Assembly: GCA_023251095.1 (NCBI GenBank)
Contig: JAHEZL010000007.1
Coordinates: forward strand, 15,136-79,135
Reading direction: 5' to 3'
DNA length: 64,000 nt
From: Flavobacteriales bacterium
GTDB lineage: Bacteria; Bacteroidota; Bacteroidia; Flavobacteriales_C; GCA-002722245
Of the stretch, positions 2,034 through 40,895 are shown one piece after another; position 1 is the stretch's first letter; each line of letters starts with the position of its first letter. The position numbers and the translations under genes were made by a program. Below the pieces are notes generated by a model that did not search any database, was not told the DNA's origin, and saw only the letters and a program-made list of their open reading frames with translations.

Positions 2034-3338
2034 CTACTTCTCCCTAAAAAACAACGTAATCGGTACTCCGCTAAAATCAAAATTCTCACGAATCTGTTTT
2101 TCCAAAAAGCGTTTATAGTTTTCCTGAATGTATTTAGGATGATTACAAAAGAAAGCGAAAGCCGGAGTTTTGGTGGGTAACATGGTGATGTATTTAATTT
2201 TCACCATTTTCCCTTTCAGTGTTGGAGGAGGAAAGCGATCAATAACAGCGCCCAGCACTTCATTGAGTTTAGAAGTTTTAATGGTGCTTGTTCTTTTGTT
2301 GTTTACCTCAATGGCTGTTTCCAGCGCTTTTAATATACGTTGCTTGTCGGGTACCGAAGTGAAGATAATAGGCACATCGGAAAAAGGACGGATGGCTTCC
2401 TGAATTTTTTCAGTGAAAGCATTGATGGTATTGGAATCCTTCGCTACCAAATCCCATTTGTTTACCACAATAACAACGCCTTTTTTAGCTTTTTCAATGA
2501 TATGAAAAATGGTGATGTCCTGCGCTTCAATTCCTTTTTCGGCATCTATCATCAACAAACAAACGTCGGAATTCTCAATGGCATTAAGGGTTCTCAGTGT
2601 TGAGTAAAACTCAATGTCTTCCTCTACTTTACTTTTCTTTCTCAGTCCGGCCGTATCAATTAAAATAAAATCGTGACCGAACGCTTTGTATCGTGTGTGA
2701 ATAGAATCACGCGTAGTACCTGCAGTTGGTGCAACAATATTGCGTTCCTGATTCATGAAGGCATTTACGATGGATGATTTTCCTACGTTAGGTCTTCCCA
2801 CCACTGCAATTTTTGGGAGGTCGCTTAAATCTTCGGGTTTTTCTTCAGAGATATCGGCAGCAATCAAATCCAGTAATTCACCTGTTCCGCTTCCGCTGAT
2901 GGCTGATATTTGTAATACTTCACCGAGTCCGAAATTGTAAAACTCAGAAGCATCAAACTGACGTTCGTAGTTGTCGACTTTATTCGCGACTAAAAATATT
3001 TTCTTGTTGCTTTTTCTTAATAAATCGGCTACACCCTGATCCAGATCGGTAATACCGTCGATCACATCCACTAAAAATATAATGATGCTACATTCCTCAA
3101 TGGCAATTTTAACCTGACGTTTAATGGCCACATCAAAAATATCATTGGAGCTTGGAACATATCCGCCCGTATCAATCACTATAAATTCTTTTGCGTTCCA
3201 TTCCACGCGTCCGTAGTGACGATCACGTGTTACTCCTGCCTGCTCATCAACGATTGCTGTCCTCGATTCCGTTAAGCGGTTGAAGAGGGTTGATTTCCCC
3301 ACATTGGGTCTTCCTACTATTGCTACAATATTTGCCAT
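2034..3338 (-). CDS. der: Ribosome biogenesis GTPase Der (EngA), with two tandem GTP-binding domains.
   Basis: Two G-domains carry GRPNVGKST/GRPNVGKSS P-loops and DTAG/DTGG motifs, with a KH-like C-terminus. Confidence 0.9.
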   Translation of the reverse strand: MANIVAIVGRPNVGKSTLFNRLTESRTAIVDEQAGVTRDRHYGRVEWNAKEFIVIDTGGYVPSSNDIFDVAIKRQVKIAIEECSIIIFLVDVIDGITDLDQGVADLLRKSNKKIFLVANKVDNYERQFDASEFYNFGLGEVLQISAISGSGTGELLDLIAADISEEKPEDLSDLPKIAVVGRPNVGKSSIVNAFMNQERNIVAPTAGTTRDSIHTRYKAFGHDFILIDTAGLRKKSKVEEDIEFYSTLRTLNAIENSDVCLLMIDAEKGIEAQDITIFHIIEKAKKGVVIVVNKWDLVAKDSNTINAFTEKIQEAIRPFSDVPIIFTSVPDKQRILKALETAIEVNNKRTSTIKTSKLNEVLGAVIDRFPPPTLKGKMVKIKYITMLPTKTPAFAFFCNHPKYIQENYKRFLEKQIRENFDFSGVPITLFFREK

Positions 3339-3412: not shown

Positions 3413-4636
3413 TTAGAAGGTGCGCTGATAAGGGGTGGTTAAGGTAACTTTGGTACCTGAGGCCTGATTGTTATGATCGTACAAATCGGAGATTTGTATT
3501 TTTACACGGTCGTTTTTGTGCAAACTTTTAATGTGGTTTTCAGTAATCTCCATTCCCAGTGATTTTCTGTCTTTAAGTTCACTTGCAGCCTTTCGGCCAA
3601 TGCCATTGTCTTCAATTTCAATATGCAGGTGATCGTTCGGCCGCGGATGGATGCGTATCCATAATTTGGGCTGTTCTTTTTTCTGGAAGGCATGGATCAG
3701 TGCATTTTCCAGGTAGGGTTGAATGATAAAGGCCGGAATCTGAATGTCTTCAATATCCAAATCAGGATGGATGTCCAGTTCAAATGAAAAATTGTGCATC
3801 ATAGAGTGGTGCAATTCCAGGTAATGTTCCAAAAATTCTTTTTCTTCTTCAAGGCTATGGTAGAGTTCATCCGACTTTTCGAGGTTTAAGCGCAGCAGGT
3901 TGGAAAACTGAATGATTTGTGTGTGTGCCTCTTCATTCTTTTTGTCGTGAGTAAGATTGGTGATGGAGGTTAGCGCATTAAAAATAAAATGCGGGTTAAT
4001 CTTGAGTCGCAGATTTTTTTGCAGCAATTCACTGTTTTGCTGCTCGATCTTCAGGGTTTTGAGATAGTTTTTGTAACGGACTCTTATAATAACGTAATGG
4101 GCATAAATACAAATGATAAGCATGGTCACCTGATGGATAATCACAAAAGGAGCATTGCTGGTATTGGCAGTTGCAGGAGAGAAATAGATAACAATGGAAA
4201 GGTAAATGCTGTTCACCAGTAAAAGTGTGGTGATGCCATAGCGACGGGTGGAGGGAAGGAATAAAGTAAAAGCAACTTCCGTATGAATAAGGTTGATGAT
4301 ATAATTGTTGTTTTCCCAACCGTTGCCCATGAGTCCGGCATTGAGGGCATTTGGGATCGTATTGAGTATCACTGCCACGAGATAAATCATCTGGAACCAT
4401 TGCTTGATGAATTTCGGAAAAACATAGGAGCTTGCCAGAGCAAGGGCACAAAAAGAAATGGAAACGTATTTCAGGAAGGTGACAGCCGGCGGAACATTAC
4501 TTCTGAAAAAATCGGGCAATATACTGGAGATAAAAATCAGGATAACACCAACCAATGCCGTGATTCGGAATGAAGGCATTATTTCGGCGGAAAGGTGTGT
4601 CCAGTATTTATTTTTTTGTTTGGCGGATATAAACAT
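3413..4636 (-). CDS. Membrane sensor histidine kinase of the LytS/YehU family (HK1). It has no adjacent response regulator.
   Basis: The N-terminal half has several transmembrane segments. The NPHFIFNAL His_kinase (PF06580-type) motif and a C-terminal HATPase region (IEDNGIG) are present. It is a paralog of the 8662..9897 kinase. Confidence 0.8.
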   Translation of the reverse strand: MFISAKQKNKYWTHLSAEIMPSFRITALVGVILIFISSILPDFFRSNVPPAVTFLKYVSISFCALALASSYVFPKFIKQWFQMIYLVAVILNTIPNALNAGLMGNGWENNNYIINLIHTEVAFTLFLPSTRRYGITTLLLVNSIYLSIVIYFSPATANTSNAPFVIIHQVTMLIICIYAHYVIIRVRYKNYLKTLKIEQQNSELLQKNLRLKINPHFIFNALTSITNLTHDKKNEEAHTQIIQFSNLLRLNLEKSDELYHSLEEEKEFLEHYLELHHSMMHNFSFELDIHPDLDIEDIQIPAFIIQPYLENALIHAFQKKEQPKLWIRIHPRPNDHLHIEIEDNGIGRKAASELKDRKSLGMEITENHIKSLHKNDRVKIQISDLYDHNNQASGTKVTLTTPYQRTF

Positions 4637-4760
4637 TAGTATAAATGGGGGCAGCTATAAAATTGTTCTTACTCTTTCCTTTTTTTGATTTCTCTTCTCT
4701 TCTCGCGGGAGACACAAATATATGTATTCGTAGGAGAGTAGAAAAAATGTTTTTGCTTCT

Positions 4761-4792
4761 TGCCGTTAAAATAGTCGAATCTGCCGTTAAAT
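4761..4792 (+). promoter_or_regulatory. Direct-repeat pair TGCCGTTAAA x2, 22 bp apart, upstream of A1. This is a putative LytTR operator.
   Basis: Exact 10-mers at 4761-4770 and 4783-4792 lie 34 bp upstream of the TAGATTTG box. Confidence 0.45.
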
Positions 4793-4816
4793 AAATGGAT
4801 GTTTGTTTTGTTTTTT

Positions 4817-4824
4817 TATACCCT
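4817..4824 (+). promoter_or_regulatory. Candidate -7 promoter box TAGATTTG for the A1-B1 transcript.
   Basis: It matches the Bacteroidota TAnnTTTG consensus. It sits inside a 16-nt block (TAGATTTGCTGCCGAG) that is identical to the one upstream of A2. Confidence 0.4.
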
Positions 4825-4872
4825 AGATTTGCTGCCGAGGAAACTAAATTTATTAAACTAAAAAAATCTCTT

Positions 4873-6108
4873 ATGAGAAAGATATTGTTATGCTTGTCGG
4901 CAATTGCCTTGAATGTTTCTGTTAATGCACAATGGACCGGAACTAATCCAATAACAACCACCAGTGCCGTTGGTATTGGAACTACAACTCCTGTTGCCGG
5001 TAATATATTGCAATTAGAAGGAGGGCATTTGGCTATGTACGGCGGTTATATTCTTCCTTATGCAGGAAATTCAACAGTTCTGTTCCGCTCTGTGAATAAT
5101 AATTTTCCTAATTATTGGCTCCCTGAAAATTTAAATACTTACCGTCAATTTGAAATCGCACATGTTAGTCCAAATGGAGTAGATGTTGCCAACAGAAGAG
5201 GGTTCTTAAATCTAGCGGCAAATCAATATATTCAAATGAATGTCAATGGTTTTGATAAAATGAAAGTGGAGGAAACGGGGGTGTCGTTTAATGTAGCTCC
5301 AATCAATTCCTGGGCATCCAATGATGCTTTGATATTCCGTTCAATAAATAACAATTTCAATGGTGTTGTAACACCTCAATTTGAAATTAAACATGTTGAT
5401 CCTAATGGAGTAGAGCTTGCCAACAGAAGGGGTTTTTTGAATATAAAGGCAGATGCCGGAGTATTAAATTTAATGAGTAATCAAACGATTGTCATGTTTA
5501 CCAATGGTGCGCAAAGAATGGCTGTTGATGTAAATGGTAATGTGGGAATTGGACAATCAACGCCGGCTGCTAAGTTAGATGTTAATGGAACAGTAAGACT
5601 TGCTATACCGGGAGCGCAAGCGAGTTATGTATTGACATCATCCAATACAAGTGGAGATGCTACATGGCAGCCAATTTCTTCTTCTCAGTGGACAACAAGT
5701 GGTTCAAATATTACTTATTCAACAGGAGGGAATGTAGGAATAGGAACCAATAATTTTAGCACTCAGGCTACTACTCCTACTAATTCAAGTCAAAACAATT
5801 ATTATAAGTTGGCTGTTAATGGTTCTGTTCGTGCCAAAGAAGTTATGGTAGAATTAAATTGGGCTGATTATGTGTTTTCTAAGGAATATCAACTGAAATC
5901 ATTAAAAGAGGTTGAGCAATATATTAATCAGAATGGACATTTGCCGGGTGTTCCATCTGCTAAAGTTGTGGAAAATCAACAAGTGGGTTTGGGGGAATTG
6001 GCAAAAATTCAACAAGAAAAAATAGAAGAATTGACCCTTTATATTATAGCGTTGAGCAAACAATTAGAAACTCAACAAAAACAGATTGAAATTTTATCTA
6101 CAAAATAA
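4873..6108 (+). CDS. Secreted repeat protein with a tail-fibre-like C-terminal domain and a terminal coiled coil (A1).
   Basis: The listed ORF begins at 4795, but the signal peptide MRKILLCLSAIALNVSVNAQ starts at the ATG at 4873. Internal ~90-aa repeats contain ELANRRGFLN. The C-terminus reads AKEVMVELNWADYVF..LKSL.EVEQYINQNGHLPGVPSA, followed by a coiled coil. It is a paralog of 10361..12232. Confidence 0.5.
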   Translation: MRKILLCLSAIALNVSVNAQWTGTNPITTTSAVGIGTTTPVAGNILQLEGGHLAMYGGYILPYAGNSTVLFRSVNNNFPNYWLPENLNTYRQFEIAHVSPNGVDVANRRGFLNLAANQYIQMNVNGFDKMKVEETGVSFNVAPINSWASNDALIFRSINNNFNGVVTPQFEIKHVDPNGVELANRRGFLNIKADAGVLNLMSNQTIVMFTNGAQRMAVDVNGNVGIGQSTPAAKLDVNGTVRLAIPGAQASYVLTSSNTSGDATWQPISSSQWTTSGSNITYSTGGNVGIGTNNFSTQATTPTNSSQNNYYKLAVNGSVRAKEVMVELNWADYVFSKEYQLKSLKEVEQYINQNGHLPGVPSAKVVENQQVGLGELAKIQQEKIEELTLYIIALSKQLETQQKQIEILSTK

Positions 6109-6138
6109 GTATTGTAATAAAATATAAATCGTGATTTT

Positions 6139-7854
6139 ATGAAAAAAAGTACAATAATTTTGTTTGTCTTTTTCCTTATTGGAATAAGCAAAAGCGCATC
6201 GGCGACTTGGACGATAGATTTTAGTATGACAGATGGTCCTTCGTCAATCCAATTAAGCTGGGTCATTGATTATGCCTGGTATAATTTTGCAACTTTAGAA
6301 AACGGAAAACTTGAAAAAAGAGATGTTACAATAAATTCAGAGTGGGAAATGTATTCCATGTTAGTACTTGATAAACATCATTATCCGGCAGCAAGTCAAA
6401 ATTTCACCGATAATAATGTAATTGCGGGCCATGAGTATGAATACAAAGTTATTTATATATGGCAGGGCGATGTGCACGAGGATGTGGAGCATTTTGGGCG
6501 AATACGACATAGTGTTCCTTCTGTTCCAATTTATGATCCAAATTCATGGCAATTAATTTATCAGGAAGATTTTTCAGGAACATCTCTAGATCCTTCAAAA
6601 TGGTATGTAACCAATAATTATGATTTTTGGGGGAATCCAGATAAAGAAGATCATCATAGACCATATGTAAATACTAACAGACCTCAAAATTTTGAAGTTA
6701 GTAACGGTACTATGAAAATAACCGCTCGTCAGGAAGACTACACTTGTCCTAGCAATGATGCTTATTATTGTGGATATAAAGGTTCATCTGAACCTTATCA
6801 TTACACAACTGCACTTATTGAAACAGACTGTGAGAAATATAAATATGTTTATGCTGAGGCATTGATTAAAGTTCCTTTTAATACTGCAGGCGGTAGAGGT
6901 TTATGGCCGTCATTCTGGACTTTTAGAGCGGAAAACCGTGTGCCTGGTCCTAATGATGCGGGTGAAATTGATATTTTTGAAATGGACCAAGTTCCAAATA
7001 ATCCAGGTGATCAGTGGCTACCTACCAATGTGCATTTGGCATATGGAGATAATGCTCCTGAATGGCAGCAAACAGTGAATATAGGTCCGCATACAGGAAA
7101 TATATGGGTAAAATATGGAATAATGTGGGATGAAAATGTTATTAGATGGTATGTAAATGATGTTTTATATAGAGAAATTTCTAATCCAGGGGTTAATGAT
7201 GCTGAAAGATTTATTTTTAATATAGCTATCAGGGAAAATCCCGATAATTACATTTTTCCGGCTACCATGGAAGTGGATTATTTTAAGGTGTATGGAAAAA
7301 AAGTAAGCATGAATAATTACACTGTTCAGGTAGGAGAAATAAAAAATCAGTACTCCAGTTACAGCATTGATGTTGCCGGAAATGCAAATAATTATATTGT
7401 TGATGCCAATACTTCGGCTCATGGCACTTTAGATCTCTATGCAGAAAATAAAATAAAATTAAATCCAGGTTTTCATGCAAAATTGGGTAGTTCTTTTCAT
7501 GCGGAAATTAATGATGGATCAGAAAGTTATTGTAATCATGCCAATGGTAGTAATTCATATAAAAAAGATGATGATAATTCAGTTGCTAAAGAAAATAAAT
7601 CTGATAAAAAGATTTCAGAAACTGTTTATGGCATTTTCCCCAATCCCAGTAATGGATCTTTTCAAATTAATACTTCACCCGATCAGATTGGATCAAGTAT
7701 CAAAATTAATGATGTAACCGGACGGTTGATTTATAGCGGATTACTTAATGACATCTCTCAGAAATTAGAGTTGGATTTTCTTCCTTCAGGAATATATATT
7801 ATCAATCTGCAAAAAGCGGATCAAGTCTATACTCAAAAACTGATGATTAAGTAA
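6139..7854 (+). CDS. T9SS-secreted GH16-family glycoside hydrolase (beta-glucanase/laminarinase-like) with an N-terminal FN3-like domain and a C-terminal Por sorting domain (B1).
   Basis: There is a signal peptide. The GEIDIFEM motif matches the GH16 E-x-D-x-x-E catalytic motif. The C-terminus (FPNPSNGSFQIN...GIYIINLQ...KLMIK) looks like a T9SS CTD. Confidence 0.65.
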   Translation: MKKSTIILFVFFLIGISKSASATWTIDFSMTDGPSSIQLSWVIDYAWYNFATLENGKLEKRDVTINSEWEMYSMLVLDKHHYPAASQNFTDNNVIAGHEYEYKVIYIWQGDVHEDVEHFGRIRHSVPSVPIYDPNSWQLIYQEDFSGTSLDPSKWYVTNNYDFWGNPDKEDHHRPYVNTNRPQNFEVSNGTMKITARQEDYTCPSNDAYYCGYKGSSEPYHYTTALIETDCEKYKYVYAEALIKVPFNTAGGRGLWPSFWTFRAENRVPGPNDAGEIDIFEMDQVPNNPGDQWLPTNVHLAYGDNAPEWQQTVNIGPHTGNIWVKYGIMWDENVIRWYVNDVLYREISNPGVNDAERFIFNIAIRENPDNYIFPATMEVDYFKVYGKKVSMNNYTVQVGEIKNQYSSYSIDVAGNANNYIVDANTSAHGTLDLYAENKIKLNPGFHAKLGSSFHAEINDGSESYCNHANGSNSYKKDDDNSVAKENKSDKKISETVYGIFPNPSNGSFQINTSPDQIGSSIKINDVTGRLIYSGLLNDISQKLELDFLPSGIYIINLQKADQVYTQKLMIK

Positions 7855-7880
7855 AAAGTTTGTTTTTTTTAATATTAAAT

Positions 7881-7900
7881 CTCCGGTTTTTAACCGGGGA
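7881..7900. terminator. Bidirectional intrinsic terminator hairpin between B1 (+) and the LytTR regulator (-).
   Basis: The hairpin CCGGTT-ttt-AACCGG is flanked by an A-tract upstream and T8 downstream. Confidence 0.55.
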
Positions 7901-7906
7901 TTTTTT

Positions 7907-8659
7907 TTATTCTCCAATTGCAAACTGACTCAAAAAATCATCCTTCCTTCTTCTGGCCACGGCGATTTTTGCGCCGTTTTTCATCACCGCAAAACCACTG
8001 TGTTTTTCATACGATTTTACATGATCGAAATTAATCAGATGTGTTTTGTGAACCCTGAAAAATCTGCTGTCCTTTAGTAGCGTTTCGTATTCCTTTATGG
8101 TTTTGCAAACCAATACAGAAGATTCATCCATGAAAATGAATTTAGTGTAGTTGCCATCTGCTTCGCAGCGGGTAATTTCGTTGATGTTTACAAATTTATA
8201 TCCGCTCGAATCAGGCAATGCAATCTGATGTAAAGTATCGGTTTTAATATTTTGAATAAGACTGTTTATTTTTTTGTTTTCCAGTGAAGTATTGTTTTGC
8301 AAAACAATTTTTTCAAGTGCTTTTTCAACCGCAGTTTTTAATTCAGAAGGATCTATCGGTTTTAAAATATAATCAATCGCAGAAAATTTAAAGGCCTTTA
8401 CTGCAAATTCATCAAAGGCTGTAGTGAAGATGAGTTTGAACTGAATGTTTTCCAGTTTTTCAAAAACAGAAAAACTATTTTCATCTTCCAGCTTTACATC
8501 AGAAAAAACAATTTGAGGGTTATGCGTTTGAATGGCTTTAATCGCCTGCTCTACATTGGTTGCGTGCGCCACAATTTTTATTTCGGGAAATAACGCATTT
8601 AATAAAGATTTTAAATAATCATGAGCCGGCATTTGATCTTCAATGATGATTGCATTCAT
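7907..8659 (-). CDS. LytTR-family response regulator (REC domain plus LytTR DNA-binding domain).
   Basis: An N-terminal receiver domain (IIEDQ...FSDVKLED) and a C-terminal LytTR domain (...FFRVHKTHLINFDHV...) are present. It lies immediately downstream of HK2 on the same strand, consistent with one operon. Confidence 0.85.
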   Translation of the reverse strand: MNAIIIEDQMPAHDYLKSLLNALFPEIKIVAHATNVEQAIKAIQTHNPQIVFSDVKLEDENSFSVFEKLENIQFKLIFTTAFDEFAVKAFKFSAIDYILKPIDPSELKTAVEKALEKIVLQNNTSLENKKINSLIQNIKTDTLHQIALPDSSGYKFVNINEITRCEADGNYTKFIFMDESSVLVCKTIKEYETLLKDSRFFRVHKTHLINFDHVKSYEKHSGFAVMKNGAKIAVARRRKDDFLSQFAIGE

Positions 8660-8661
8660 AT

Positions 8662-9897
8662 TTAAAAGGTTTTTTCGTAAGAAGTAATTAAAGATACTTT
8701 GGTCCCCGCCGGCTGTCCGTTTTTGGCAAATAAATCCATAATTCTGATACTGATATTATCATTTTTATGGAGGGTTTTAATTCTGTTTTCAGTGATGTCC
8801 ATACCCATCGATTTTCTTTTGCTTTCTTTTTTTAATGCTGCCGCTGCCTTTCTGCCAATGCCATTGTCTTCAATTTCAATGGCTAAATATTCCTCGGATT
8901 GAGGACGTATGCGGATGCAAAGTTTATGTTCGTCATTGTTTTGAAAGGCATGTATCAGCACATTTTCCACATAAGGCTGAATGATAAAAGCGGGAATTTG
9001 TATGTTTTCGGTTTCCAGTTCCGAATCAATTTCCATAACAAAAGAAAAGTTTTTCGACATGCTGTGTTGCAGGTCGAGATAGGAGGTCAGGAATGTTTTT
9101 TCTTCTTCTACACTATGGTACAGCTCGTCGGATTTTTCAAGGTTGAAGCGCAATAGATTTGAAAACTTTACGATGTGCTCATGAGCCTCCTCGTTTTTTT
9201 TGGCGTAGGTTAAATTGGCAATGGATGAAAGTGCATTAAAAATAAAATGAGGATTGATTTTTAAGCGCAGGTTTTTTTGTAACAATTCATTTTTCTTTTT
9301 TTCAATTTGTAAGGTTTTCGAAAAGTTTTTATAACGAGCTCTTAAAATAGCATGGTGGCCGTAAATACAGATGGTGAGCATGGTCACCTGATGAATTAAA
9401 AGGAAGGGCATATTTTTAGTGGGACTTCCAACCGGACTGAAATAAATGTTATTAAAAAGATAAATGATGTTGATGATGATAAGCGTTGCCAATCCGTAAG
9501 GTCGCGATGAAGGCATAAATACGGTAAAAGCAATTTCAACGTGAATTAAATAGATGACATGGTCATTCGCGCCCCATCCTCCGTCTAAACCCGAATGAAT
9601 GGAGTTGGGCAGCATGATTAATACAACAGCCAGCAGATAAATCAGCTGGAACCATTTTTTGATTATTTCGGGAAAGAGGTAGGAAGTCACAATAGCTACC
9701 ACACAAAAGGCTATGGAAACGTATTTCAAATTGGTGATGGCGGCAGGCACTCCTCCGGTGCGGTAATCGCGCAGCGGCCCTGCTAAAAAAACCAGTACAA
9801 CAGCCGACAATAAAGTGATTCTGAAAGAAGGCAATATTTCTTCTCCGATATATCTCCAGTAGTCTTCCCGTTGTTTAGCAGATATAATCATTTGCAT
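8662..9897 (-). CDS. Membrane sensor histidine kinase of the LytS/YehU family (HK2), a paralog of HK1.
   Basis: It has the same NPHFIFNAL and HATPase blocks as HK1, with a diverged transmembrane sensing half. There is a 2-bp gap to the response regulator. Confidence 0.8.
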   Translation of the reverse strand: MQMIISAKQREDYWRYIGEEILPSFRITLLSAVVLVFLAGPLRDYRTGGVPAAITNLKYVSIAFCVVAIVTSYLFPEIIKKWFQLIYLLAVVLIMLPNSIHSGLDGGWGANDHVIYLIHVEIAFTVFMPSSRPYGLATLIIINIIYLFNNIYFSPVGSPTKNMPFLLIHQVTMLTICIYGHHAILRARYKNFSKTLQIEKKKNELLQKNLRLKINPHFIFNALSSIANLTYAKKNEEAHEHIVKFSNLLRFNLEKSDELYHSVEEEKTFLTSYLDLQHSMSKNFSFVMEIDSELETENIQIPAFIIQPYVENVLIHAFQNNDEHKLCIRIRPQSEEYLAIEIEDNGIGRKAAAALKKESKRKSMGMDITENRIKTLHKNDNISIRIMDLFAKNGQPAGTKVSLITSYEKTF

Positions 9898-9963
9898 AAA
9901 AGATAACTAGGAGATAACTTCTCTTTAGTTGTTTTGATTTTGAATGTTTCTCGACCTGATAAG

Positions 9964-9971
9964 CAAATATA
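9964..9971 (-). promoter_or_regulatory. Candidate Bacteroidota -7 promoter box (TATATTTG on the minus strand) for the HK2 and LytTR-regulator genes.
   Basis: It matches the TAnnTTTG consensus about 65 nt upstream of the HK2 start codon. Confidence 0.3.
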
Positions 9972-10049
9972 TAAATTTTCGTTGCACGCGATAAATTTGT
10001 TTTTTGAGTAAAATATTGGAAGAGTGCCTATTAAGGAAGGGTGGCCGTA

Positions 10050-10146
10050 AAATTAAAAACCCTCCCGTGATACGGGAGGGTTTTTTAAGATAGCTAGGCT
10101 ACAGGCTTCTTATTCAACATCTGATTTTTAAAATCACAATGTTTTC
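10050..10146 (-). ncRNA. Candidate small RNA, copy 1. It contains the conserved box GCCTGTAGCCTAGCT and a palindrome, and ends in an intrinsic terminator.
   Basis: On the minus strand a TAAATTTG -7 box (10160..10153) lies downstream of the direct repeats. The hairpin CCCTCCCG-tgata-CGGGAGGG at 10060..10080 is followed by a T-tract. No CDS is present. A paralogous element lies at 18765..18905. Confidence 0.3.
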
Positions 10147-10202
10147 GATAGTCAAATTTATATTGAAAATCCGGAAACACACAGGAAACGGGCATGCACT
10201 TA

Positions 10203-10231
10203 TTTAACGGTAGGGATTACTGTTTTAACGG
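10203..10231 (-). promoter_or_regulatory. Direct-repeat pair (CCGTTAAA cores 21 bp apart) oriented toward the minus strand. This is a putative LytTR operator.
   Basis: The + strand has tttaacgg at 10203-10210 and again at 10224-10231. It lies 45-70 bp upstream of the minus-strand -7 box of the candidate sRNA. Confidence 0.4.
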
Positions 10232-10247
10232 TAAGTGATTAAAATTA

Positions 10248-10278
10248 TGCCGTTAATTCAGTCGCCGCTGCCGTTTAA
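10248..10278 (+). promoter_or_regulatory. Direct-repeat pair oriented toward A2 (tgccgttaat and tgccgtttaa, 21 bp apart). This is a putative LytTR operator.
   Basis: It has the same core and spacing as the 4761/4783 pair upstream of A1. The LytTR regulators AgrA and AlgR bind 9-10 bp direct repeats with ~12 bp spacers. Confidence 0.45.
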
Positions 10279-10310
10279 TAAATCTCACTTTTATTTTGAT
10301 TTTTATCACC

Positions 10311-10318
10311 TAGATTTG
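10311..10318 (+). promoter_or_regulatory. Candidate -7 promoter box TAGATTTG for the A2-B2 transcript.
   Basis: The box and its flanks are identical to those at 4817-4832. Confidence 0.4.
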
Positions 10319-10360
10319 CTGCCGAGTAACCTAAAAATATTAAACTAAAAAAACACTCAT

Positions 10361-12232
10361 ATGAAAAAAATGTTATTATGCCTTTCGGCAATCGCCCTTA
10401 CCTCTGCTGCGAATGCACAGTGGACAGGAACCAATCCATTAACAACTCCAAGTGCTGTTGGAATTGGTACATCACCTACCCTTAATTATATTCCTTTGCA
10501 GGTTCGTGCCGATGAGAGTTTATTTGGCGGAAGTGGAATTGTTGCTTCTTTTGAAAGATTCTCTCCAAATCCACTAAGTACAGGAAAACTCAATATTACA
10601 GTGAGTGATTTCGGTGATAGTTATAATGCGGGTGATATATTGATGGATGCTCAGGGGAATGCGGATATCGCATTAAGAACCCAAGGAGGATCAGGCGGGA
10701 TTTTGGTATTAAAAAGAAACGGAACAGTTGGTATCGGAACAGGTACTCCAACTACTGATGCGGCTGTGAAATTACATATTAAATCTTATGGAGCGGATCC
10801 ACAAAACGCTCAAATATTAATTGAATCTTCAGAAACACAAGCTGTGAGATTTGCTCGCTCAGGCATCAATACCTGGATCATGGGAAGAAGAGCAAGCGAC
10901 AATGCTTTTTCAATTACAGATTCCTATTTTTTCGACGGTAACACAGAGAAATTTGTTTTAAATGGTTCAGGATTTTTAGGATTGGGTGCGCAAACTCCAT
11001 CTGAGAAATTAGATATATTAAATGGTAACCTTAAATTAACGAACGGTACTTTTTTACCTTACGGAAATGATACAAGAGTTCTTTTCCAATCGCACAATAC
11101 TTCTGCATCAGGTAGTCCGGTTCAATTTGAAATGTTGCATCAGTCTAGCGGTGTTGAGCTAGCCAACAGAAGAGGATATCTTACTATGAGAGCCGATGAT
11201 GGTAATTTGAATTTACTGAGTTCTCAAAAAGTTTTAATGTACACAGGAGGAGTTCAGAGAATGGTGGTTGATCCAACCGGAAGAGTGGGAATTGGTCAAA
11301 CAGCGCCTGCATCAACATTGGATGTGAACGGAACCTTAAGATTGAGTGTTGCGGGAGCACAAGCAGGCTTTGTATTAACAGCCACCAATGCAAATGGAGA
11401 TGCTACATGGCAGGCACTTCCTACACCTGCTACACAGTGGTCAGTAAACGGAGCAGATGTATATCGTTCTACCGGAAATGTTGGTATTGGAACAAATACA
11501 CCTTCTGCCAGATTCCAGATAGTAGATGGTTCTACTCAAATGAGTTTAATGAGTACAGGTGTTAGCTCAGGAATGTACGGCACACAGTATTATGCAGGAA
11601 TTAATTTTGAAGGAGGAGATAAGATTACAGTTGGAAAAACTTTTAATCCAAATACATACGGAAGTCATTTCGCAATTAAAAATGAAACGAGAGCAAATTC
11701 GGCTTTAATTGCCTTGGCCTATGATAAAGTATACATTGGTGGAAGTTCAGCAGGAGTTAATGCGGTAAGTTTCAGCAATGACGGAGTTGTAAATATCGGA
11801 AGCGGAACTATCCCAGCCGGAAAAGGATATATGCTGGGTGTGAGAGGTAAAATTATTTGCGAAGAAGTAAAAGTTGCTTTGCATGCAGACTGGCCTTGGG
11901 CGGATTATGTTTTTGCTGACGATTACAAACTTACGTCTCTTGATTCATTAGAATCATACATCAAAGAAAACAAGCATTTACCAAACATCAGCTCAGCTAA
12001 AGAAATCAAAGAAGAAGGAATTAACCTGGGCCAAATGCAAAACAAGCACATGGAAAAAATCGAGGAGCTGACTTTGTATATTATTGAGTTGAACAAAAAA
12101 TTATCTGAGCAACAACAGTTGAATACTACAGCTAGTAATTTACAGGCTCAACAAGCTAAGCAAATTGAGCAACTTACTTCAGTGTTAATGGAAGTTAGCA
12201 AGAAAGTGGCAGAGCAAGCGCAGTCGAAATAA
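10361..12232 (+). CDS. Secreted repeat protein with a tail-fibre-like C-terminal domain and coiled coil (A2), a paralog of A1.
   Basis: The signal peptide is MKKMLLCLSAIALTSAANAQ. ELANRRGYL repeats are present. The C-terminus reads VKVALHADWPWADYVF..LTSLDSLESYIKENKHLPNISSA, followed by a coiled coil. Confidence 0.5.
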   Translation: MKKMLLCLSAIALTSAANAQWTGTNPLTTPSAVGIGTSPTLNYIPLQVRADESLFGGSGIVASFERFSPNPLSTGKLNITVSDFGDSYNAGDILMDAQGNADIALRTQGGSGGILVLKRNGTVGIGTGTPTTDAAVKLHIKSYGADPQNAQILIESSETQAVRFARSGINTWIMGRRASDNAFSITDSYFFDGNTEKFVLNGSGFLGLGAQTPSEKLDILNGNLKLTNGTFLPYGNDTRVLFQSHNTSASGSPVQFEMLHQSSGVELANRRGYLTMRADDGNLNLLSSQKVLMYTGGVQRMVVDPTGRVGIGQTAPASTLDVNGTLRLSVAGAQAGFVLTATNANGDATWQALPTPATQWSVNGADVYRSTGNVGIGTNTPSARFQIVDGSTQMSLMSTGVSSGMYGTQYYAGINFEGGDKITVGKTFNPNTYGSHFAIKNETRANSALIALAYDKVYIGGSSAGVNAVSFSNDGVVNIGSGTIPAGKGYMLGVRGKIICEEVKVALHADWPWADYVFADDYKLTSLDSLESYIKENKHLPNISSAKEIKEEGINLGQMQNKHMEKIEELTLYIIELNKKLSEQQQLNTTASNLQAQQAKQIEQLTSVLMEVSKKVAEQAQSK

Positions 12233-12263
12233 ATGTTTTTGAAATTAATTTAAAAATGAAATT

Positions 12264-14519
12264 ATGAAAATACATTTTTTAAAAGCAGGGCTCCTTTTAC
12301 TTTGGTTCTTTTCTTTCATTAGCTCGGCTAAAGCAGAGATAGCCGGTGAAGTTAAGTTTGAAGTTATGTCGACTTACATCAAAATAAGTTGGGATGTATT
12401 TCAAGAAAACCGATATGAGGGAATAGAACTCAAAAGGAGACGAGTAGGGGAATCGGCCTGGCAGTCTATTACTCCAAATGGCTTTGGAGAAACAAATGGT
12501 ACAGTGAATGAATACCAGGAGTTTTGGGATTATAATATTCAATATGGAACTAAGTATCAATATTTAGTTGTTTATGATGAAAAAGCTTGGTACGATGGTT
12601 TTCCAACAGGTAATAATTACAGAGAAGAAATTTTACCGGGAAAACCTACAGCCTGGGGTATTCCCTCTGATGTTGCTGCAGATTTAGAAACCTGGCCTGT
12701 GATCACAGTTAATGGTTATGCTGCTACGGTTCAAGTGTTGTATTCTAACAGATCTGATAAAAGGTTAAAAAAGCCCTTAATCATTGTGGATGGTTTCGAT
12801 CCTTTAAATAACAGGGATTTATTTAGTACAAAAGAAAAAAATGCCATAGATTCAAGAGGACTTTTTGCTTTAATGAATGGTGATCTTCCTTCGGGTCCAA
12901 GAGGAATTAATGCAGTGGGACAAATTCGTCAACAGTGTTATGATTTGGTTTTTGTAAACTGGCATGAAGGAGCCGGAGACGTTAGGAAAAATGCTGATTT
13001 ATTTATTCAAGTTGTCAATTTGGTCAATCAAGCAAAAGTAACCGCCGAACAACTGGTAGTGTTTGGTCCCAGTATGGGAGGTCTGATTACACGTTTAGCT
13101 TTAGCTAAAATGGAGATAAGTGGCCAGAATCACCAAACGAGATTATATATTTCTATGGACTCACCACATTTAGGAGGACAGGCTCCGATGGGTGTTCAGA
13201 AGTTAGGTCAAATAGTAGATAATATTAGAGGGACTCATACATTTGCGGATAGATTGGGATCAACGGCTGCAAAGCAAATGTTGAGATATCATCTTTTTGC
13301 TTCACCAGATGGTCATGTTGCTGATCAAGATGCTGAAAGGTATTCTTTTATTAATGATTTAAACAGTATGAGCAATAAAGGGTGGCCAATGAATTTGCGT
13401 AAAATAGCAATTTCTAATGGAAGTGTTTTGTCGGGCACAAACAGTTTAAATGGCGGTACACATATAGCTGATATCATGTGCGGTGCATTGGAATATGATA
13501 TTTATGCTTTTGGAAGAAGTGATAATGTATATATGATCAATCGTTTAACAACCGTTGAGTATAATACATCGCTGCCTCCGATTTTAACGGATAATTCTAG
13601 TGGTGGAACTATAAACTTTACTGAAATGTTAAGGACGATAGTTACCAATAATGGGGATGATTGTATGCATGATGAAGATCCTGGTCTTCAAACGAGCTCT
13701 TGTTTTATACCAATTAATAGTGCGTTTGCCTATAATGAAGCAGCAGCCAGTGATTATTCTAAGTACAATAATGGATTAAGTGCAGATAATATTCATAAAG
13801 TATGGGGATCACAAACACCATCTACTGTGAATACTCCTTTCGATGCATTGTTTGGTCAAACTTACAATCAAACCCATTGTCAGGTTGACCAAGTAACAAT
13901 TGACTGGCTCCTTCAGCAAATGGCCATTCAGGATCAATACGCTTTTGGAGACACCTATTTTCCTGTTCAAGGAAGTAGCGATATAAGTATCTACACCGGA
14001 GGAGGAAGTAATTGGGCTAAAAATATGTACTTCGCTTCTAATCCAAATGATGGGGCGCACATATATGGTACCGACCGAAAATTCATCGCGTCTAAAAGCA
14101 TTACCTTATCACCGGGTACGAAGGTTTTTTCTCTCGGCGGAACAGATCATCCATACACTGCTTTTCAAATTGGAGCCAGACCGGATTGCTATGGTCCTAT
14201 CACCCAGTATTCTAATCCGGCGGGTCCGCCGCCAATGGCAGAGAAAACTGATGAAACAGCCGATGCGGTTTCAGAGCTAAACATTCAAAATGTAAATGTT
14301 TATCCTAACCCGAATAATGGAAATTTCACTCTTCAGTTAAATCCCGATTGGATCAGTGGAACTATCGTTGTGACGGATCTTACCGGTCGCACTATGTATA
14401 CTGACCAAGTCCGCAGTAGCATGGAAAACATTACAGCTGATATAGCAGCGGGAGTTTACTCTGTTACGATAAGCAAAGGAGACAATAAAATAACTCGAAA
14501 ATTTGTGGTTGTAAAATAA
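12264..14519 (+). CDS. T9SS-secreted alpha/beta-hydrolase, a PGAP1-like/DUF676-type lipase or esterase with an N-terminal FN3-like domain (B2).
   Basis: There is a signal peptide. The nucleophile elbow is VVFGPSMGGLITR (GxSxG), followed by DSPHLGG. The C-terminal T9SS CTD reads YPNPNNGNFTLQL...VYSVTI...KFVVVK. Confidence 0.6.
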   Translation: MKIHFLKAGLLLLWFFSFISSAKAEIAGEVKFEVMSTYIKISWDVFQENRYEGIELKRRRVGESAWQSITPNGFGETNGTVNEYQEFWDYNIQYGTKYQYLVVYDEKAWYDGFPTGNNYREEILPGKPTAWGIPSDVAADLETWPVITVNGYAATVQVLYSNRSDKRLKKPLIIVDGFDPLNNRDLFSTKEKNAIDSRGLFALMNGDLPSGPRGINAVGQIRQQCYDLVFVNWHEGAGDVRKNADLFIQVVNLVNQAKVTAEQLVVFGPSMGGLITRLALAKMEISGQNHQTRLYISMDSPHLGGQAPMGVQKLGQIVDNIRGTHTFADRLGSTAAKQMLRYHLFASPDGHVADQDAERYSFINDLNSMSNKGWPMNLRKIAISNGSVLSGTNSLNGGTHIADIMCGALEYDIYAFGRSDNVYMINRLTTVEYNTSLPPILTDNSSGGTINFTEMLRTIVTNNGDDCMHDEDPGLQTSSCFIPINSAFAYNEAAASDYSKYNNGLSADNIHKVWGSQTPSTVNTPFDALFGQTYNQTHCQVDQVTIDWLLQQMAIQDQYAFGDTYFPVQGSSDISIYTGGGSNWAKNMYFASNPNDGAHIYGTDRKFIASKSITLSPGTKVFSLGGTDHPYTAFQIGARPDCYGPITQYSNPAGPPPMAEKTDETADAVSELNIQNVNVYPNPNNGNFTLQLNPDWISGTIVVTDLTGRTMYTDQVRSSMENITADIAAGVYSVTISKGDNKITRKFVVVK

Positions 14520-14540
14520 CAGATTTCTTTTTCTTTGAAA

Positions 14541-14565
14541 ATCCCCGGTAGAAATACCGGGGATT
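14541..14565 (+). terminator. Intrinsic terminator after B2.
   Basis: The hairpin ATCCCCGG-tagaaata-CCGGGGAT is followed by a T-rich tract. Confidence 0.6.
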
Positions 14566-14576
14566 TTTCTTTTTTC

Positions 14577-14606
14577 TACCGTTAAATAAATCAATATAAC
14601 CGTTCA
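14577..14606 (+). promoter_or_regulatory. A third copy of the operator-like motif (CTACCGTTAAATAAAT plus a second CCGTT core 21 bp downstream), upstream of B3.
   Basis: The 13-mer CCGTTAAATAAAT is shared with the A1 site, and CCGTTtAATAAAT with the A2 site. Confidence 0.35.
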
Positions 14607-14775
14607 TCCTTTTTATTTTTTAAAGAGACTTATCTGCTATAATTTGGTGCTATTGATTATGGGAGTAATCAACTTGAGCATAACTAAAACATAAATTGTG
14701 AAAAGAGTGTTGATCTGCCTTTCGTTATGGCCTTGAATTACCATAACGACTTTTAAAATAACTAAACCTGAACTT

Positions 14776-16980
14776 ATGAAATTAAAAAACTATTCTAGAT
14801 ATCTGTTGATAGCATTGTGTGTCATGGCCGGCAATTTATTTGCTACTCCGGTTACCTTCAATTATTTTACTCCAACTACATCCATTGGTGCTCTTTCTGT
14901 TACAAAAAAGATTGCGTCCGAACACAATGGCTCCATTTGTAGCGGTGAGTATATGACCATATTCGCATCCGGACATACTTCAATTGTGAAGCCATATATT
15001 ATTGTAGAAGGAATAGATTTTTTAAACGATCAGGATTTTCAGGCGCATGTGGATTTATACAACAATAATGTGTCTTCAGCTTCAAATTCTTTGTTGTTTA
15101 ACCTTTACAATAATGGCTATGATGTTATCATACTGGATTTTGATTATTCCGGAGATTATATTCAAAACAATGCTTTCCTGTTAGTGGAATTAATAAAACA
15201 CATCAATGCCATTAAAGCCAATACAGGTAATAATATGATCGTACAAGGTTATAGCATGGGTGGTTTAGTTGCGAGATATGCATTGACATGGATGGAAGCT
15301 AATCTGATTGAGCATCAAACCAGGTTGTTTATTACTCATGACACGCCACACAAAGGAGCAAATTTCCCTATAGGCCTGCAGGAATTAGTGAACGATATGA
15401 CAGAACACATGCCTATTGCTTGGGTTGGGTTTCAAACTATTTTGGCTTCATTTGAAAAATCATATCCAGGCGCTACTCAAATGTTAGTATACCATTGGTC
15501 ACATACACATGGTGGAACTGTTAGCGGTGCAGGAAGTAAAGCACTGCCCGCAAATAAAAAAATAAATTTTTTCCAGGAATTGTATAATCTTAATCCCAGT
15601 GATAATGGTTACCCTTCTAAACCGCTGAGAATTGCTGTTTCAAATGGAAATTATTCAGGTCAACTTCAGGCGGGAATTACCCCGGGAGATGCAATGTTAA
15701 GTTTCAATTATACCCGCACTGTAGGAACAAAGCATTACAAATGGCCTTCTCCACTTTGCGGCAGTCTTTTTGACTTTAATGGATGTGACATTAACTGGGG
15801 TGATGATTATTACAGAGGTACCGCTCGTTATGGATTTACAGGTTATACTGCTACTGAAAATTTTGAGTTTTATACTTCCGGAATTGCAGATTTCGGGAAT
15901 TTGGGTACAAGGACTTATTATCCGCTTTCGGGTAGTGGTTCGCAAAATTTTTCTACAGAAAATTACGATTATGATCGTGCACCGGGGTCCTACCTGCCAA
16001 GTTTCTTTTTAACGATAGTCGAAGATGCCATTAAAACGGGACTTACTTCAGATGTATATATTAATCCTAATCCGCCTTGCTTCATTGCCACTACAAGCGC
16101 ATTAGATTTAAATATGCCTATCAATTCAACTTTCGATCCTAATAACTCTCGTTGTTTTACCAATTTTGATTACATCTTTGCTAACAGTTCGGCCAATTTA
16201 CACCATTTTGAATTGGCTCCTTTGGCAAAAAACTTTATAATGACACATGTTTTGGTTAATGAGGTGCCTAATAGGCCAATTGCTTATCAGGGGTATGATT
16301 TAGTTATTCCCAATAATACTATTGTTTATTCCGGACAATCCTATAACAAAACAGTTCAGCATAACATTACTAATGCTGGGAATTTCACGCTCAAAAGCAA
16401 TAGCTCTTCTGGATTGATTGCTGGAAATTCAATTACCTTTTCCCCTGGTTTTAAAGCAGAAACAGGAAGTAATTTCTCTGCGAAAATAAAATCTGCAAGC
16501 TCAATGTGTAGTGGTGGAATAGCGTATTTACCAAATTATGTCCTTGATTATGTAGTGGGAGGTCCCCCGGTTGAAAATGGTCCGTTGCCAGAAGAAAATA
16601 CAACGGAAGACTTTAGTAACTATGTAGCTTATAATTGCTCAAATATGGAAGAAATGCCTAATTATTCTTCTGAACGAACTTACTTTATTTGTGATGTTGA
16701 TACAACCATTAATATTGATTCAACGCTTGCGCAAAACATTAGTATATATCCTAATCCTACCAGCGGGCCTCTGACCATTCAACTAAGCGATCAAATTCCT
16801 TTAAATGATTTGTCAATTAAAGTTTTTGATCCCTATAACAATTTAGTTGCTGAGTTTTTGACAGTAACATCAAGAACGGTGAATTTAGATTTTTCCAATG
16901 GCTATACAGGCTTGTATAATGTTCAGTTTAATTTCTTTTCCGGCGCGTACATTTATAGCCGGAAAGTCATGAAAATGTGA
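14776..16980 (+). CDS. T9SS-secreted alpha/beta-hydrolase (PGAP1-like lipase or esterase), a paralog of B2 (B3).
   Basis: There is a signal peptide. The motifs are IVQGYSMGGLVARYAL and HDTPHKGAN. The C-terminal T9SS CTD reads YPNPTSGPLTIQL...GLYNVQF... Confidence 0.6.
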   Translation: MKLKNYSRYLLIALCVMAGNLFATPVTFNYFTPTTSIGALSVTKKIASEHNGSICSGEYMTIFASGHTSIVKPYIIVEGIDFLNDQDFQAHVDLYNNNVSSASNSLLFNLYNNGYDVIILDFDYSGDYIQNNAFLLVELIKHINAIKANTGNNMIVQGYSMGGLVARYALTWMEANLIEHQTRLFITHDTPHKGANFPIGLQELVNDMTEHMPIAWVGFQTILASFEKSYPGATQMLVYHWSHTHGGTVSGAGSKALPANKKINFFQELYNLNPSDNGYPSKPLRIAVSNGNYSGQLQAGITPGDAMLSFNYTRTVGTKHYKWPSPLCGSLFDFNGCDINWGDDYYRGTARYGFTGYTATENFEFYTSGIADFGNLGTRTYYPLSGSGSQNFSTENYDYDRAPGSYLPSFFLTIVEDAIKTGLTSDVYINPNPPCFIATTSALDLNMPINSTFDPNNSRCFTNFDYIFANSSANLHHFELAPLAKNFIMTHVLVNEVPNRPIAYQGYDLVIPNNTIVYSGQSYNKTVQHNITNAGNFTLKSNSSSGLIAGNSITFSPGFKAETGSNFSAKIKSASSMCSGGIAYLPNYVLDYVVGGPPVENGPLPEENTTEDFSNYVAYNCSNMEEMPNYSSERTYFICDVDTTINIDSTLAQNISIYPNPTSGPLTIQLSDQIPLNDLSIKVFDPYNNLVAEFLTVTSRTVNLDFSNGYTGLYNVQFNFFSGAYIYSRKVMKM

Positions 16981-17014
16981 TTTAGATTAAAGAGGGTAAT
17001 GAAAACAATAAAAA

Positions 17015-17034
17015 CCCCCGGGAAATACCGGGGG
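17015..17034 (+). terminator. Intrinsic terminator after B3.
   Basis: The hairpin CCCCCGG-gaaata-CCGGGGG is followed by T5. Its loop sequence matches that of the B2 terminator. Confidence 0.6.
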
Positions 17035-17068
17035 TTTTTCTTTCCTTAATAAATCCTATTTTTAGGGT

Positions 17069-18927: not shown

Positions 18928-18981
18928 TTTTGCGGTAAGAAATGCAGTTTTATCGGTTGGATTTATAGATTAACGGCAGGG
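18928..18981 (-). promoter_or_regulatory. Three operator-like repeats (TTTTGCGGTAAGA, TTTTATCGGTTGG, ATTAACGGCAGGG) at ~20-21 bp spacing, oriented toward the minus strand.
   Basis: They resemble TTTAACGGTAGGG and TTTTAACGGTAAG at 10203-10235. The flank CACTTATTT is conserved in both copies. Confidence 0.3.
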
Positions 18982-39184: not shown

Positions 39185-39540
39185 CACGTATTCAGTTCAT
39201 CACCCTGGTAGTTTGTATTGCTTTGTTGGCTTATGTTACCCGTTTAGTGATAAAAGGTAAGCTGCGTGTTGAATATTCTATCTTTTGGATATTGGTTTCC
39301 TTGCTTCTGGTATTGTTTACTTTTTGGAAAACAGGATTTGAGTTGATTGCCAGAAAACTAGAAGTTTACGAAGCTCCGAATTTAATTTTTACTGTTGCCA
39401 TTTTTACTGTTTTTGTATACTTACTTCATTTATCAGTAGTGAATACAAAACTTCAGAAATCAAATAAAAAATTAGCTCAGGAAATCGCAATATTGAATCA
39501 AAAAATTAAATCTGAAAAGAAGAATGAAAAAGTTATTTAA
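39181..39540 (+). CDS. Small membrane protein, DUF2304-like.
   Basis: It has three predicted transmembrane segments at ~119 aa. It follows a GT2 gene, as DUF2304 genes typically do. Confidence 0.4.
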   Translation: MTRIQFITLVVCIALLAYVTRLVIKGKLRVEYSIFWILVSLLLVLFTFWKTGFELIARKLEVYEAPNLIFTVAIFTVFVYLLHLSVVNTKLQKSNKKLAQEIAILNQKIKSEKKNEKVI

Positions 39541-40867: not shown

Positions 40868-40895
40868 TTGAAAAAGTAGTTTTATTATTGAAAAC

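Follow-up and report, generated by a model that had tools for sequence, protein, structure and literature searches.

Two-component systems of the LytS/LytTR class, among them BtsS/BtsR and YpdA/YpdB of Escherichia coli, LytSR of Staphylococcus aureus, and FimS/AlgR of Pseudomonas aeruginosa, share a PF06580 kinase core and a response regulator composed of a receiver (REC) and a LytTR domain, and their operators consist of two direct repeats of about 9 nt separated by a spacer of about 12 nt (PMC4847170). These systems are among the most numerous regulators of Bacteroidota, and almost none of them has a known target; the control of individual cargo genes of the T9SS, the type IX secretion system, is also largely unknown. 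Here, we describe a 13.6-kb accessory island from an uncultured Flavobacteriales bacterium, available as a metagenome-assembled genome (MAG), in which a LytS/LytTR system is encoded together with what is probably its local regulon, predicted to yield signal-inducible co-production of a fibre and an exoenzyme. The island occupies positions 3413-16980 of a 64,000-nt stretch (GenBank assembly GCA_023251095.1, contig JAHEZL010000007.1, positions 15,136 to 79,135; hereafter, the window). It encodes two sensor kinases (HK1 and HK2), one LytTR response regulator, two putative fibre proteins (A1 and A2), and three hydrolases predicted to be T9SS cargo (B1, B2, and B3). Compared with the described members of the class, the sensor halves of the kinases lack 5TM-Lyt, GAF, or any other known domain and are confined to two protein clusters, two kinases stand beside a single regulator, and the predicted targets are fibre and T9SS exoenzyme genes, not transporters or holin-like genes. 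These predicted targets are new for the LytS/LytTR class.

The agr, com, pln, and blp systems of Firmicutes likewise place paired repeats before several operons for secreted products and use divergent, back-to-back promoters; in agr, the divergent promoters P2 and P3 have such pairs upstream, bound by AgrA (PMC4227749). The resemblance to bacteriocin or virulence regulons of Firmicutes pointed out in a preliminary description of the locus holds for the regulator and the operator layout, but not for the kinases, which here are of the LytS/YehU type, nor for the gene content, which includes no pheromone precursor, exporter, or immunity gene. Moreover, the host is Gram-negative, export would proceed by Sec and the T9SS, and promoters of the Bacteroidota -33/-7 type are used. 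Another two-component system, PorX/PorY, is likewise tied to T9SS biology. PorX carries a PglZ output domain and controls genes of the T9SS machinery, whereas the DNA-binding LytTR regulator of the island is predicted to control individual cargo operons. In many-to-one branched phosphorelays, the Kin kinases feed into Spo0F, and LuxN, LuxQ, and CqsS feed into LuxU; several sensors would similarly converge on one regulator here, judging from sequence. As for the A proteins, their closest described counterparts are the MAT fibres of Bdellovibrio bacteriovorus of the non-S74 class (8ond, 8onc, and 8oml; PMC10769870), which have the same VGIGTxxPxxKLxV capping motif and an intertwined beta-helix. 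However, the A proteins are shorter and end in a conserved helical C-terminal domain, without a relative in the PDB, instead of a variable tip, and a T9SS hydrolase gene typically follows directly downstream of theirs. In the full-text literature searchable outside subscription journals, only genome inventories mention both LytTR and T9SS, and nothing was found on fibre-T9SS pairs or on Flavobacterium LytTR regulons; within that scope, no earlier description was found.

Two housekeeping GTPase genes, der (2034-3338) and rsgA (17069-17989), bracket the island, der beginning 74 bp downstream of HK1, and the island proteins carry no informative names in public records. A scan of open reading frames (ORFs) reproduced the coordinates of all genes listed previously, and Pfam and NCBIfam confirmed their stated domains. 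HK1 (3413-4636), the regulator gene (7907-8659), and HK2 (8662-9897) lie on the minus strand, the regulator starting 2 nt after the HK2 stop codon. On the plus strand, A1 (4873-6108) is followed after 30 nt by B1 (6139-7854), and A2 (10361-12232) is followed after 31 nt by B2 (12264-14519); B3 (14776-16980) has its own promoter and its own terminator. The previously given A1 start at 4873 is right, because the A1 and A2 signal peptides align from there with 76% identity and the mechanical ORF start, at 4795, is upstream of the predicted promoter. Strong hairpin terminators are located after B1 (7877-7903, bidirectional, between the convergent B1 and regulator genes), B2 (14537-14568, plus strand), and B3 (17010-17039). 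Together with the short A-B gaps, they point to the transcription units A1-B1, A2-B2, and B3, each starting at an operator-bearing promoter. The tandem layout was found again in independent assemblies and is therefore no assembly artefact. It had been described as two copies of a three-gene module, which is correct for the kinases and the A genes, both paralogous, but B1 is not B2 in diverged form, the two having unrelated catalytic domains and aligning only over the C-terminal ~70 to 230 aa. Since B1 shares only the C-terminal stalk and the T9SS sorting domain with B2 and B3, the cargo was swapped, not duplicated.

The upstream regions of A1 and A2 have a common block of 106 nt with 78% identity, above the 70% seen in the kinase coding DNA. 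Inside the block, before A1, is a pair of 9-nt direct repeats with the consensus RCCGTTMMW, a 12-nt spacer, and starts 21 bp apart (O-A1, 4762-4791, plus strand; GCCGTTAAA-N12-GCCGTTAAA), which scored 34.7 bits with a position weight matrix (PWM). Similar pairs were observed before A2 (O-A2, 10249-10278, plus strand; GCCGTTAAT-N12-GCCGTTTAA; 32.8 bits) and before B3, just after the B2 terminator (O-B3, 14578-14607, plus strand; ACCGTTAAA-N12-ACCGTTCAT; 25.6 bits). A fourth pair, the best in the window, faces leftward back-to-back with O-A2 (10232-10203, minus strand; ACCGTTAAA-N12-ACCGTTAAA; 38.6 bits). The four pairs thus score 25.6 to 38.6 bits, against a maximum of 20.4 bits over 50 shuffles, and the PWM scan of the window gave nothing else above noise, a borderline pair at 18940-18980 (minus strand, 18.4 bits) being at the level of the shuffles. 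The strict pattern CCGTTNAA-N10-15-CCGTTNAA occurs twice in the window, with none expected, and the relaxed pattern CCGTT-N15-17-CCGTT occurs at four sites, all inside the locus and each facing a gene or a terminator. By chance, the repeat pair is found about 5 times per million strand-positions, as counted in 1.3 Mb of unrelated Bacteroidota loci with one tandem array and a few sites resembling real operators of other LytTR systems left out. The Bacteroidota sigma-A promoter has a -7 consensus TAnnTTTG at -12 to -5 (PMC9723704), and boxes of this kind were read from the sequence downstream of the pairs, namely TAGATTTG for A1-B1 (4824-4831, plus strand), TAGATTTG again for A2-B2 (10311-10318, plus strand), and the -7-like TATAATTTG for B3 (14638-14646, plus strand). 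In all three, the distance from the start of the proximal half-site to the box is fixed at 41 bp, and the half-sites are centred near -49 and -70 if transcription starts about 5 nt after the box. The geometry of the four pairs agrees with that published for LytTR sites, two repeats of 9 to 11 nt with a spacer of 11 to 13 nt (PMC4847170), and we consider them candidate operators.

Taken together, the gene content and the candidate operators suggest the following mechanism. HK1 and HK2, both membrane-embedded, would each sense a signal, which could bring two different signals onto one output, and would phosphorylate the single regulator on D54. The phosphorylated regulator would bind as a dimer to the RCCGTTMMW pairs, about 50 and 70 bp upstream of the sigma-A promoter start sites, and would activate A1-B1, A2-B2, B3, and a short leftward unit next to HK2. 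The A proteins, exported by Sec and processed by signal peptidase I, would form trimeric fibres like those of phage tails or MAT proteins, and the B hydrolases (one GH16 glycanase and two serine esterases) would be exported by the T9SS, the outcome being a co-production of fibre and exoenzyme induced by the signal. We infer from the sequence regulator binding, activation as opposed to repression, fibre assembly, the biological role, and the convergence of two kinases; the last is read from the 72% identity of the DHp regions and from the lack of a second regulator. The preliminary description had already proposed that the LytTR system controls the adjacent A and B genes, and operator-like pairs at a fixed distance, restricted to the locus within the window and conserved beside the orthologous kinases, speak for it, although the regulation itself is a prediction. 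As it stands, the locus offers a concrete and falsifiable first regulon, with a defined predicted operator, three target operons, and two candidate sensors.

HK1 and HK2 each have about six hydrophobic segments and are polytopic, without an extracytoplasmic domain; the segments are followed by the PF06580 DHp and ATPase regions (60.8 bits for HK1 and 62.2 bits for HK2; cut-off, 25.2). HATPase_c was recognized in HK1 (29.4 bits; cut-off, 26.4) but scored only 18.0, below the cut-off, in HK2, whose ATPase region nevertheless has an N box and a DNGIG motif. The NPHFIFN motif, which harbors the phospho-histidine, is invariant in the alignment of the kinase family. Over their full length, HK1 and HK2 are 61% identical, and the values of 56% for the transmembrane half, 72% for DHp, and 63% for the ATPase form a modest gradient, so the earlier statement that the catalytic blocks are identical and the sensing halves diverged does not hold. 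The sensor half (residues 1 to 195) gave no match in Pfam or NCBIfam and is not recognized as the PF07694-type 5TM sensor of LytS proper. A word-indexed search for relatives returned only five full-length ones. In an exhaustive HMMER search of 1.84 billion representatives, 97,411 matched the catalytic half and only two 50%-identity clusters matched the sensor half. A sensor-only alignment search of metagenomes gave no confirmed match, and among the matches listed from a full-length kinase scan of GTDB genomes there were only relatives of the catalytic half. By these searches, the sensor domain is very rare and new. The regulator has both a LytTR domain (63.0 bits; cut-off, 22.6) and a Response_reg domain (58.1 bits; cut-off, 30.2), and the receiver residues E7, D8, D54, T80, and K101 are all present; its best NCBIfam similarity, a weak one, is to BtsR and LytR. 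As proposed before, it is operonic with HK2 and is the only one in the 64 kb, and no regulator gene follows HK1, which is an orphan. Outside the island, the window has no further LytTR, kinase, A-type, or T9SS C-terminal domain (CTD) genes of these types.

An orphan kinase raises the possibility that only module 2 signals and that HK1 is a decaying duplicate or serves a regulator elsewhere, A1-B1 still being driven by HK2 and the regulator. We give this a real but minor chance. In addition to the missing partner, HK1 is called as a C-terminal fragment of 236 aa in another, independently assembled contig from the same population (Logan SRR14366772), in which the rest of the locus is intact, and a related locus described below, L001, shows that the two-component system decays readily here. 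Nevertheless, HK1 is a full-length ORF in the window with intact phospho-histidine, N, and G boxes, and its DHp domain is the part most similar to that of HK2. It also keeps its own conserved predicted -7 box (TATATTTG, 4715-4722, minus strand), homologous to a box before HK2 (9964-9971, minus strand). These traits agree better with two kinases feeding the single regulator.

The leftward operator pair precedes a short unit, located before the own promoter of HK2, that consists of a -7 box (TAAATTTG, 10160-10153, minus strand), about 70 to 90 nt, and a strong hairpin terminator (10055-10086). Its ORFs have only 7 to 8 codons, the terminator accounts for most of its fold z-score of -6.4, and an Rfam scan of the locus gave only sub-threshold matches, on terminators. 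An analogous unit is seen in a related locus, L005 (9760-9964, minus strand), where about 120 nt and then a strong terminator, immediately before rsgA, come after the repeat pair and a -7-like box; it is unstructured (z = -0.09), aligns only loosely with the unit of the island, and represents a small RNA or else a stub that remained when a cargo operon was deleted. For the leftward unit, a small RNA, an attenuated autoregulatory promoter, and a similar stub are all conceivable, and the occurrence of such a unit in L005 tentatively favors the last. A further option is that the short transcript encodes a tiny peptide and that the island is a regulon of the quorum-sensing or bacteriocin type, comparable to agr, com, pln, or blp, in which the kinases sense a secreted peptide pheromone and the system is autoinduced. 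A LytTR regulator, 9-nt repeats with 12-nt spacers, divergent operators standing back-to-back between HK2 and A2 as at agr P2/P3, and a polytopic sensor without a periplasmic domain would all fit. However, the kinases belong to PF06580 (LytS/YehU family) and not to the AgrC/ComD type, the ORF inventory of the locus has no leader-bearing precursor, AgrB-like protein or ABC exporter, or immunity gene, ORFs of 7 to 8 codons are all that the short unit offers, and the cargo consists of ordinary hydrolase families. We therefore regard a pheromone circuit as improbable, and a LytS/LytTR system that drives the fibre and exoenzyme operons is preferred.

Next, the relatives of the locus were compared. 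The kinases of L008 and L009 are 42 to 43% identical to HK2, and each is divergent from an A-family gene; a T9SS-CTD gene comes next, encoding a 943-aa protein of unknown type in L008 and a DUF676 esterase in L009. In both, the short intergenic region contains a repeat pair, TTACCGTTCCAT-N-TTACCGTTCCAT, facing the A gene. L005 to L007 have a 56% identical kinase, located with a regulator gene beside rsgA, no A or B genes, and still a repeat pair of this kind. L001 and L002, from a Flavobacteriales MAG, have an A gene and an M12/M43-like CTD metallopeptidase gene in the same der-rsgA slot, and at L001 (9291-9630) only the first kinase codons are left, fused to a 62-aa LytTR remnant, with the operator gone. 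Thus, the repeat element adjoins the only orthologous kinases found (L005 to L007, L008, and L009; 42 to 56% identical). In four of four modules of the subfamily, an A gene is found no more than 10 kb away from the kinase, as against one of 80 loci with generic LytS-type kinases, a background set reused from the full-length kinase scan of GTDB genomes (Fisher p = 2.6e-6). The triad of kinase, fibre, and T9SS hydrolase, whose conservation across genomes the preliminary description proposed to test, recurs beside orthologous kinases, but it is confined to a very narrow lineage. These neighbourhoods indicate that kinase, regulator, operator, fibre, and CTD enzyme formed a unit ancestral to the narrow lineage, with parts gained, swapped, and lost. 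The idea of an expandable cassette is borne out as far as the cargo is concerned, which is swappable between loci (GH16, esterase, metallopeptidase, and the 943-aa protein). The der-rsgA slot is evidently a hot spot for gene turnover.

The layouts of L001 and of L005 to L007 show that the parts can exist apart, and the kinase-regulator pair and the A and B genes might accordingly be mere neighbours in a variable island, the repeats being bound by another factor or left over, inert, from a duplication. The gene turnover in the der-rsgA slot is compatible with this, and so are similar (A/T)CCGTT repeats with 21-bp spacing near unrelated Bacteroidota LytS/LytTR systems, observed at L016 (5337), L033 (11542), and L064 (8707-9011); the motif alone therefore does not identify the regulator that binds it. 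On the other hand, the repeats are conserved where the kinases are only 42 to 56% identical and also stand before B3, which is not duplicated; their distance to the -7 box is fixed and their geometry typical of LytTR sites; and L001 has lost the regulator and the repeats alike. We consider mere neighbourhood unlikely and retain the LytTR regulator as the probable ligand of the repeats. Among the unrelated systems, the L016 repeats precede a TonB-dependent receptor gene and those of L033 are upstream of a gene for a CTD protein, at a distance of about 600 bp, and CCGTT may be a common core of LytTR half-sites in Bacteroidota.

A1 and the 623-aa A2 are clear paralogues that share a C-terminal domain besides the signal peptide, and neither has a Pfam or NCBIfam match. 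More than 6,500 homologues of A1 were found; every named one is called hypothetical, and no Pfam model covers them, although some carry a precomputed PF26696 label that the Pfam scan here did not reproduce. The family consensus consists of a signal peptide ending in A|Q, several copies of VGIGTxxPxxKLxV, and a conserved C-terminal domain of about 100 aa (W-DYVF ... HLP-VPSA ... KIEELTLY). The glutamine right after the predicted cleavage site is nearly invariant (residue 20 in A1), and an A|Q ending is characteristic of signal peptidase I cleavage in Bacteroidota. Neither A1 nor A2 has a T9SS CTD. With their Sec signal peptide, the A proteins are not T9SS cargo. In Bdellovibrio MAT fibres, the intertwined trimeric beta-helix is defined by a capping motif (PMC10769870), which the VGIGT-type repeat matches, and the MAT motif (V-G-G/N-pi-x-x-P-x-x-x-L) is repeated in A1, in A2, and in the family consensus. 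Against the PDB, MAT fibres gave the only sequence matches (8ond, E = 2.9e-7) and the only significant Foldseek matches. An AlphaFold monomer model (pLDDT 67.8) reached confident values only in one beta segment and in the C-terminal domain, which is made of three helices, ends in a long helix, and has no relative among solved structures. These results point to Sec-exported, MAT-like fibres, for which a trimeric state and surface exposure are predicted. We also observed an internal duplication in A1 with a period of 231 nt and 80% nucleotide identity (5145-5223 and 5376-5454; segment QFEI-HV-PNGV-ANRRGFLN), a third copy of the motif being found in A2 at 11150. That the A genes are prophage or tailocin tail-fibre remnants in a degraded mobile element is very improbable, since the weak PHROG tail-fibre matches and the beta-helix fibre fold are outweighed by the lack of other phage genes in the locus, the Bacteroidota-type signal peptides, and the thousands of cellular family members, often paired with T9SS enzymes. 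A phage origin of the A proteins was likewise rejected on the basis of a search in 50,697 phage genomes, which gave one weak match and none to the conserved C-terminal domain.

The families claimed for the B proteins in the preliminary description, namely, GH16, alpha/beta-hydrolase, and T9SS sorting domains, were all found above cut-off. B1 has a GH16 domain (PF00722, 50.4 bits; cut-off, 22) with the catalytic EIDIFE (ExDxxE), a GCX "coathanger" stalk, and a type-A CTD. B2 is a serine esterase of the DUF676/PGAP1 type (DUF676, 24.9 bits; cut-off, 20.3; PGAP1 below cut-off) with a GPSMG nucleophile elbow, and its paralogue B3 is of the PGAP1 type (30.8 bits; cut-off, 24.3), with a GYSMG elbow and a GCX stalk; the two have only the hydrolase core in common, with 28% identity. 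The sorting domain TIGR04183 scored 46.2 bits in both B1 and B2 (cut-off, 23), whereas that of B3 is weaker, being recognized by PF18962 Por_Secre_tail (32.5 bits; cut-off, 27) without a TIGR04183 match. Signal peptides were read directly in the sequence. Thus, B1, B2, and B3 have the features of T9SS type-A cargo, by which route their export is predicted. The designation of these enzymes as lytic was an assumption. A common N-terminal adaptor domain was also considered and rejected, as the similarity was not significant (E of about 0.4). A PorX-type gene (21940-23484, minus strand; 514 aa, Response_reg and PglZ) is located about 5 kb beyond the right end of the locus; the T9SS with its usual machinery regulator is therefore presumably present in the genome. 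The terminators of B2 and B3 have a 22-nt stretch in common with 95% identity (14551-14572 and 17022-17043), and that of B1 is of the same style, which suggests that cargo units were copied together with their terminators.

The pairing of fibre and enzyme genes was further followed in 80 A-family loci from metagenomes, 26 of which have more than one A gene. An ORF with a CTD starts within 400 nt downstream of an A gene in at least 20 of the 80 loci (25%) and in 12 of the 39 loci of at least 10 kb; as the CTD model is narrow, the 25% is a lower bound. When ten of the CTD partners were checked against Pfam, all ten had Por_Secre_tail, and the catalytic domains comprised three M12 peptidases, one M4 thermolysin, two S8 subtilases, and one glycosyl hydrolase, with none recognizable in the other three. 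Four hand-picked A-family members on long contigs gave similar pictures, and a pair of A and CTD genes is also carried by the cultured Aquimarina sp. AD10 (CP031965, around 3.66 Mb). A fibre gene followed by a T9SS exoenzyme gene is thus a common gene pair in Bacteroidota. Immediate adjacency to LytS/LytTR genes is enriched (L118, L152, and L162, in addition to the hand-picked L093; Poisson p of about 1e-3). At L162 (377-9227), a LytTR gene is divergent from six tandem A-family genes, and at L152 (6732-13060) a kinase gene is divergent from a LytTR gene, which precedes an A gene and then two CTD genes, the first of them of the S8 type. Repeats with 21-bp spacing before the LytTR-linked A genes of L093, L118, and L139 gave only weak 8-of-9 matches, of different sequences.

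This very large and unnamed MAT-like family is repeatedly encoded upstream of T9SS proteases, lipases, and glycanases, and we see the A-fibre/T9SS-enzyme pairing as the most promising lead. Tentatively, and with less confidence than we place in the local regulon, fibre and downstream hydrolase might form a widespread two-part device in which the fibre docks the enzyme onto prey, particles, or the own surface. In the island, the device would have been built into a signal-inducible cassette with duplicating sensors, swapped cargo, and gain or loss of units at one hot spot. If true, it would be functionally analogous to bacteriocin loci while built from unrelated parts, and if fibre and enzyme cooperate, they would be a common, undescribed element of the attack of Bacteroidota on particles or other cells.

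Several observations weigh against a regulon of this kind. Only 5 of the 80 sampled A-family loci are linked to a LytS/LytTR system, so that most A-family genes elsewhere have no adjacent one. L001 keeps the A-B pair without a two-component system or operator, and conversely L005 to L007 keep kinase, regulator, and operator without A or B genes. The truncation of HK1 in the sister assembly may mean that the second input is decaying and that HK1 is pseudogenized in some cells. O-B3 has a weak second half-site (6.5 bits), and the A proteins would still have to cross the outer membrane. Finally, the source is an uncultured MAG, and regulation, binding, and secretion are all predicted. Nevertheless, candidate operators at a fixed distance before three cargo units, and kept beside the orthologous kinases, make a local LytS/LytTR regulon the reading that we consider probable.

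In addition, an 18-nt perfect inverted repeat (7905-7922 and 17112-17129; TTTTATTCTCCAATTGCA and TGCAATTGGAGAATAAAA) brackets module 2, joining the last codons of the regulator gene to codons 15 to 20 of rsgA. About 0.002 such repeats are expected by chance in the region, and it may be the scar of a past rearrangement. Elsewhere in the window, three large ORFs (447, 622, and 692 aa; 39524-42764 and 47699-49777) gave no Pfam match at E <= 1e-5, and a DUF5723/TSP_3 protein is encoded at 49774-51723.

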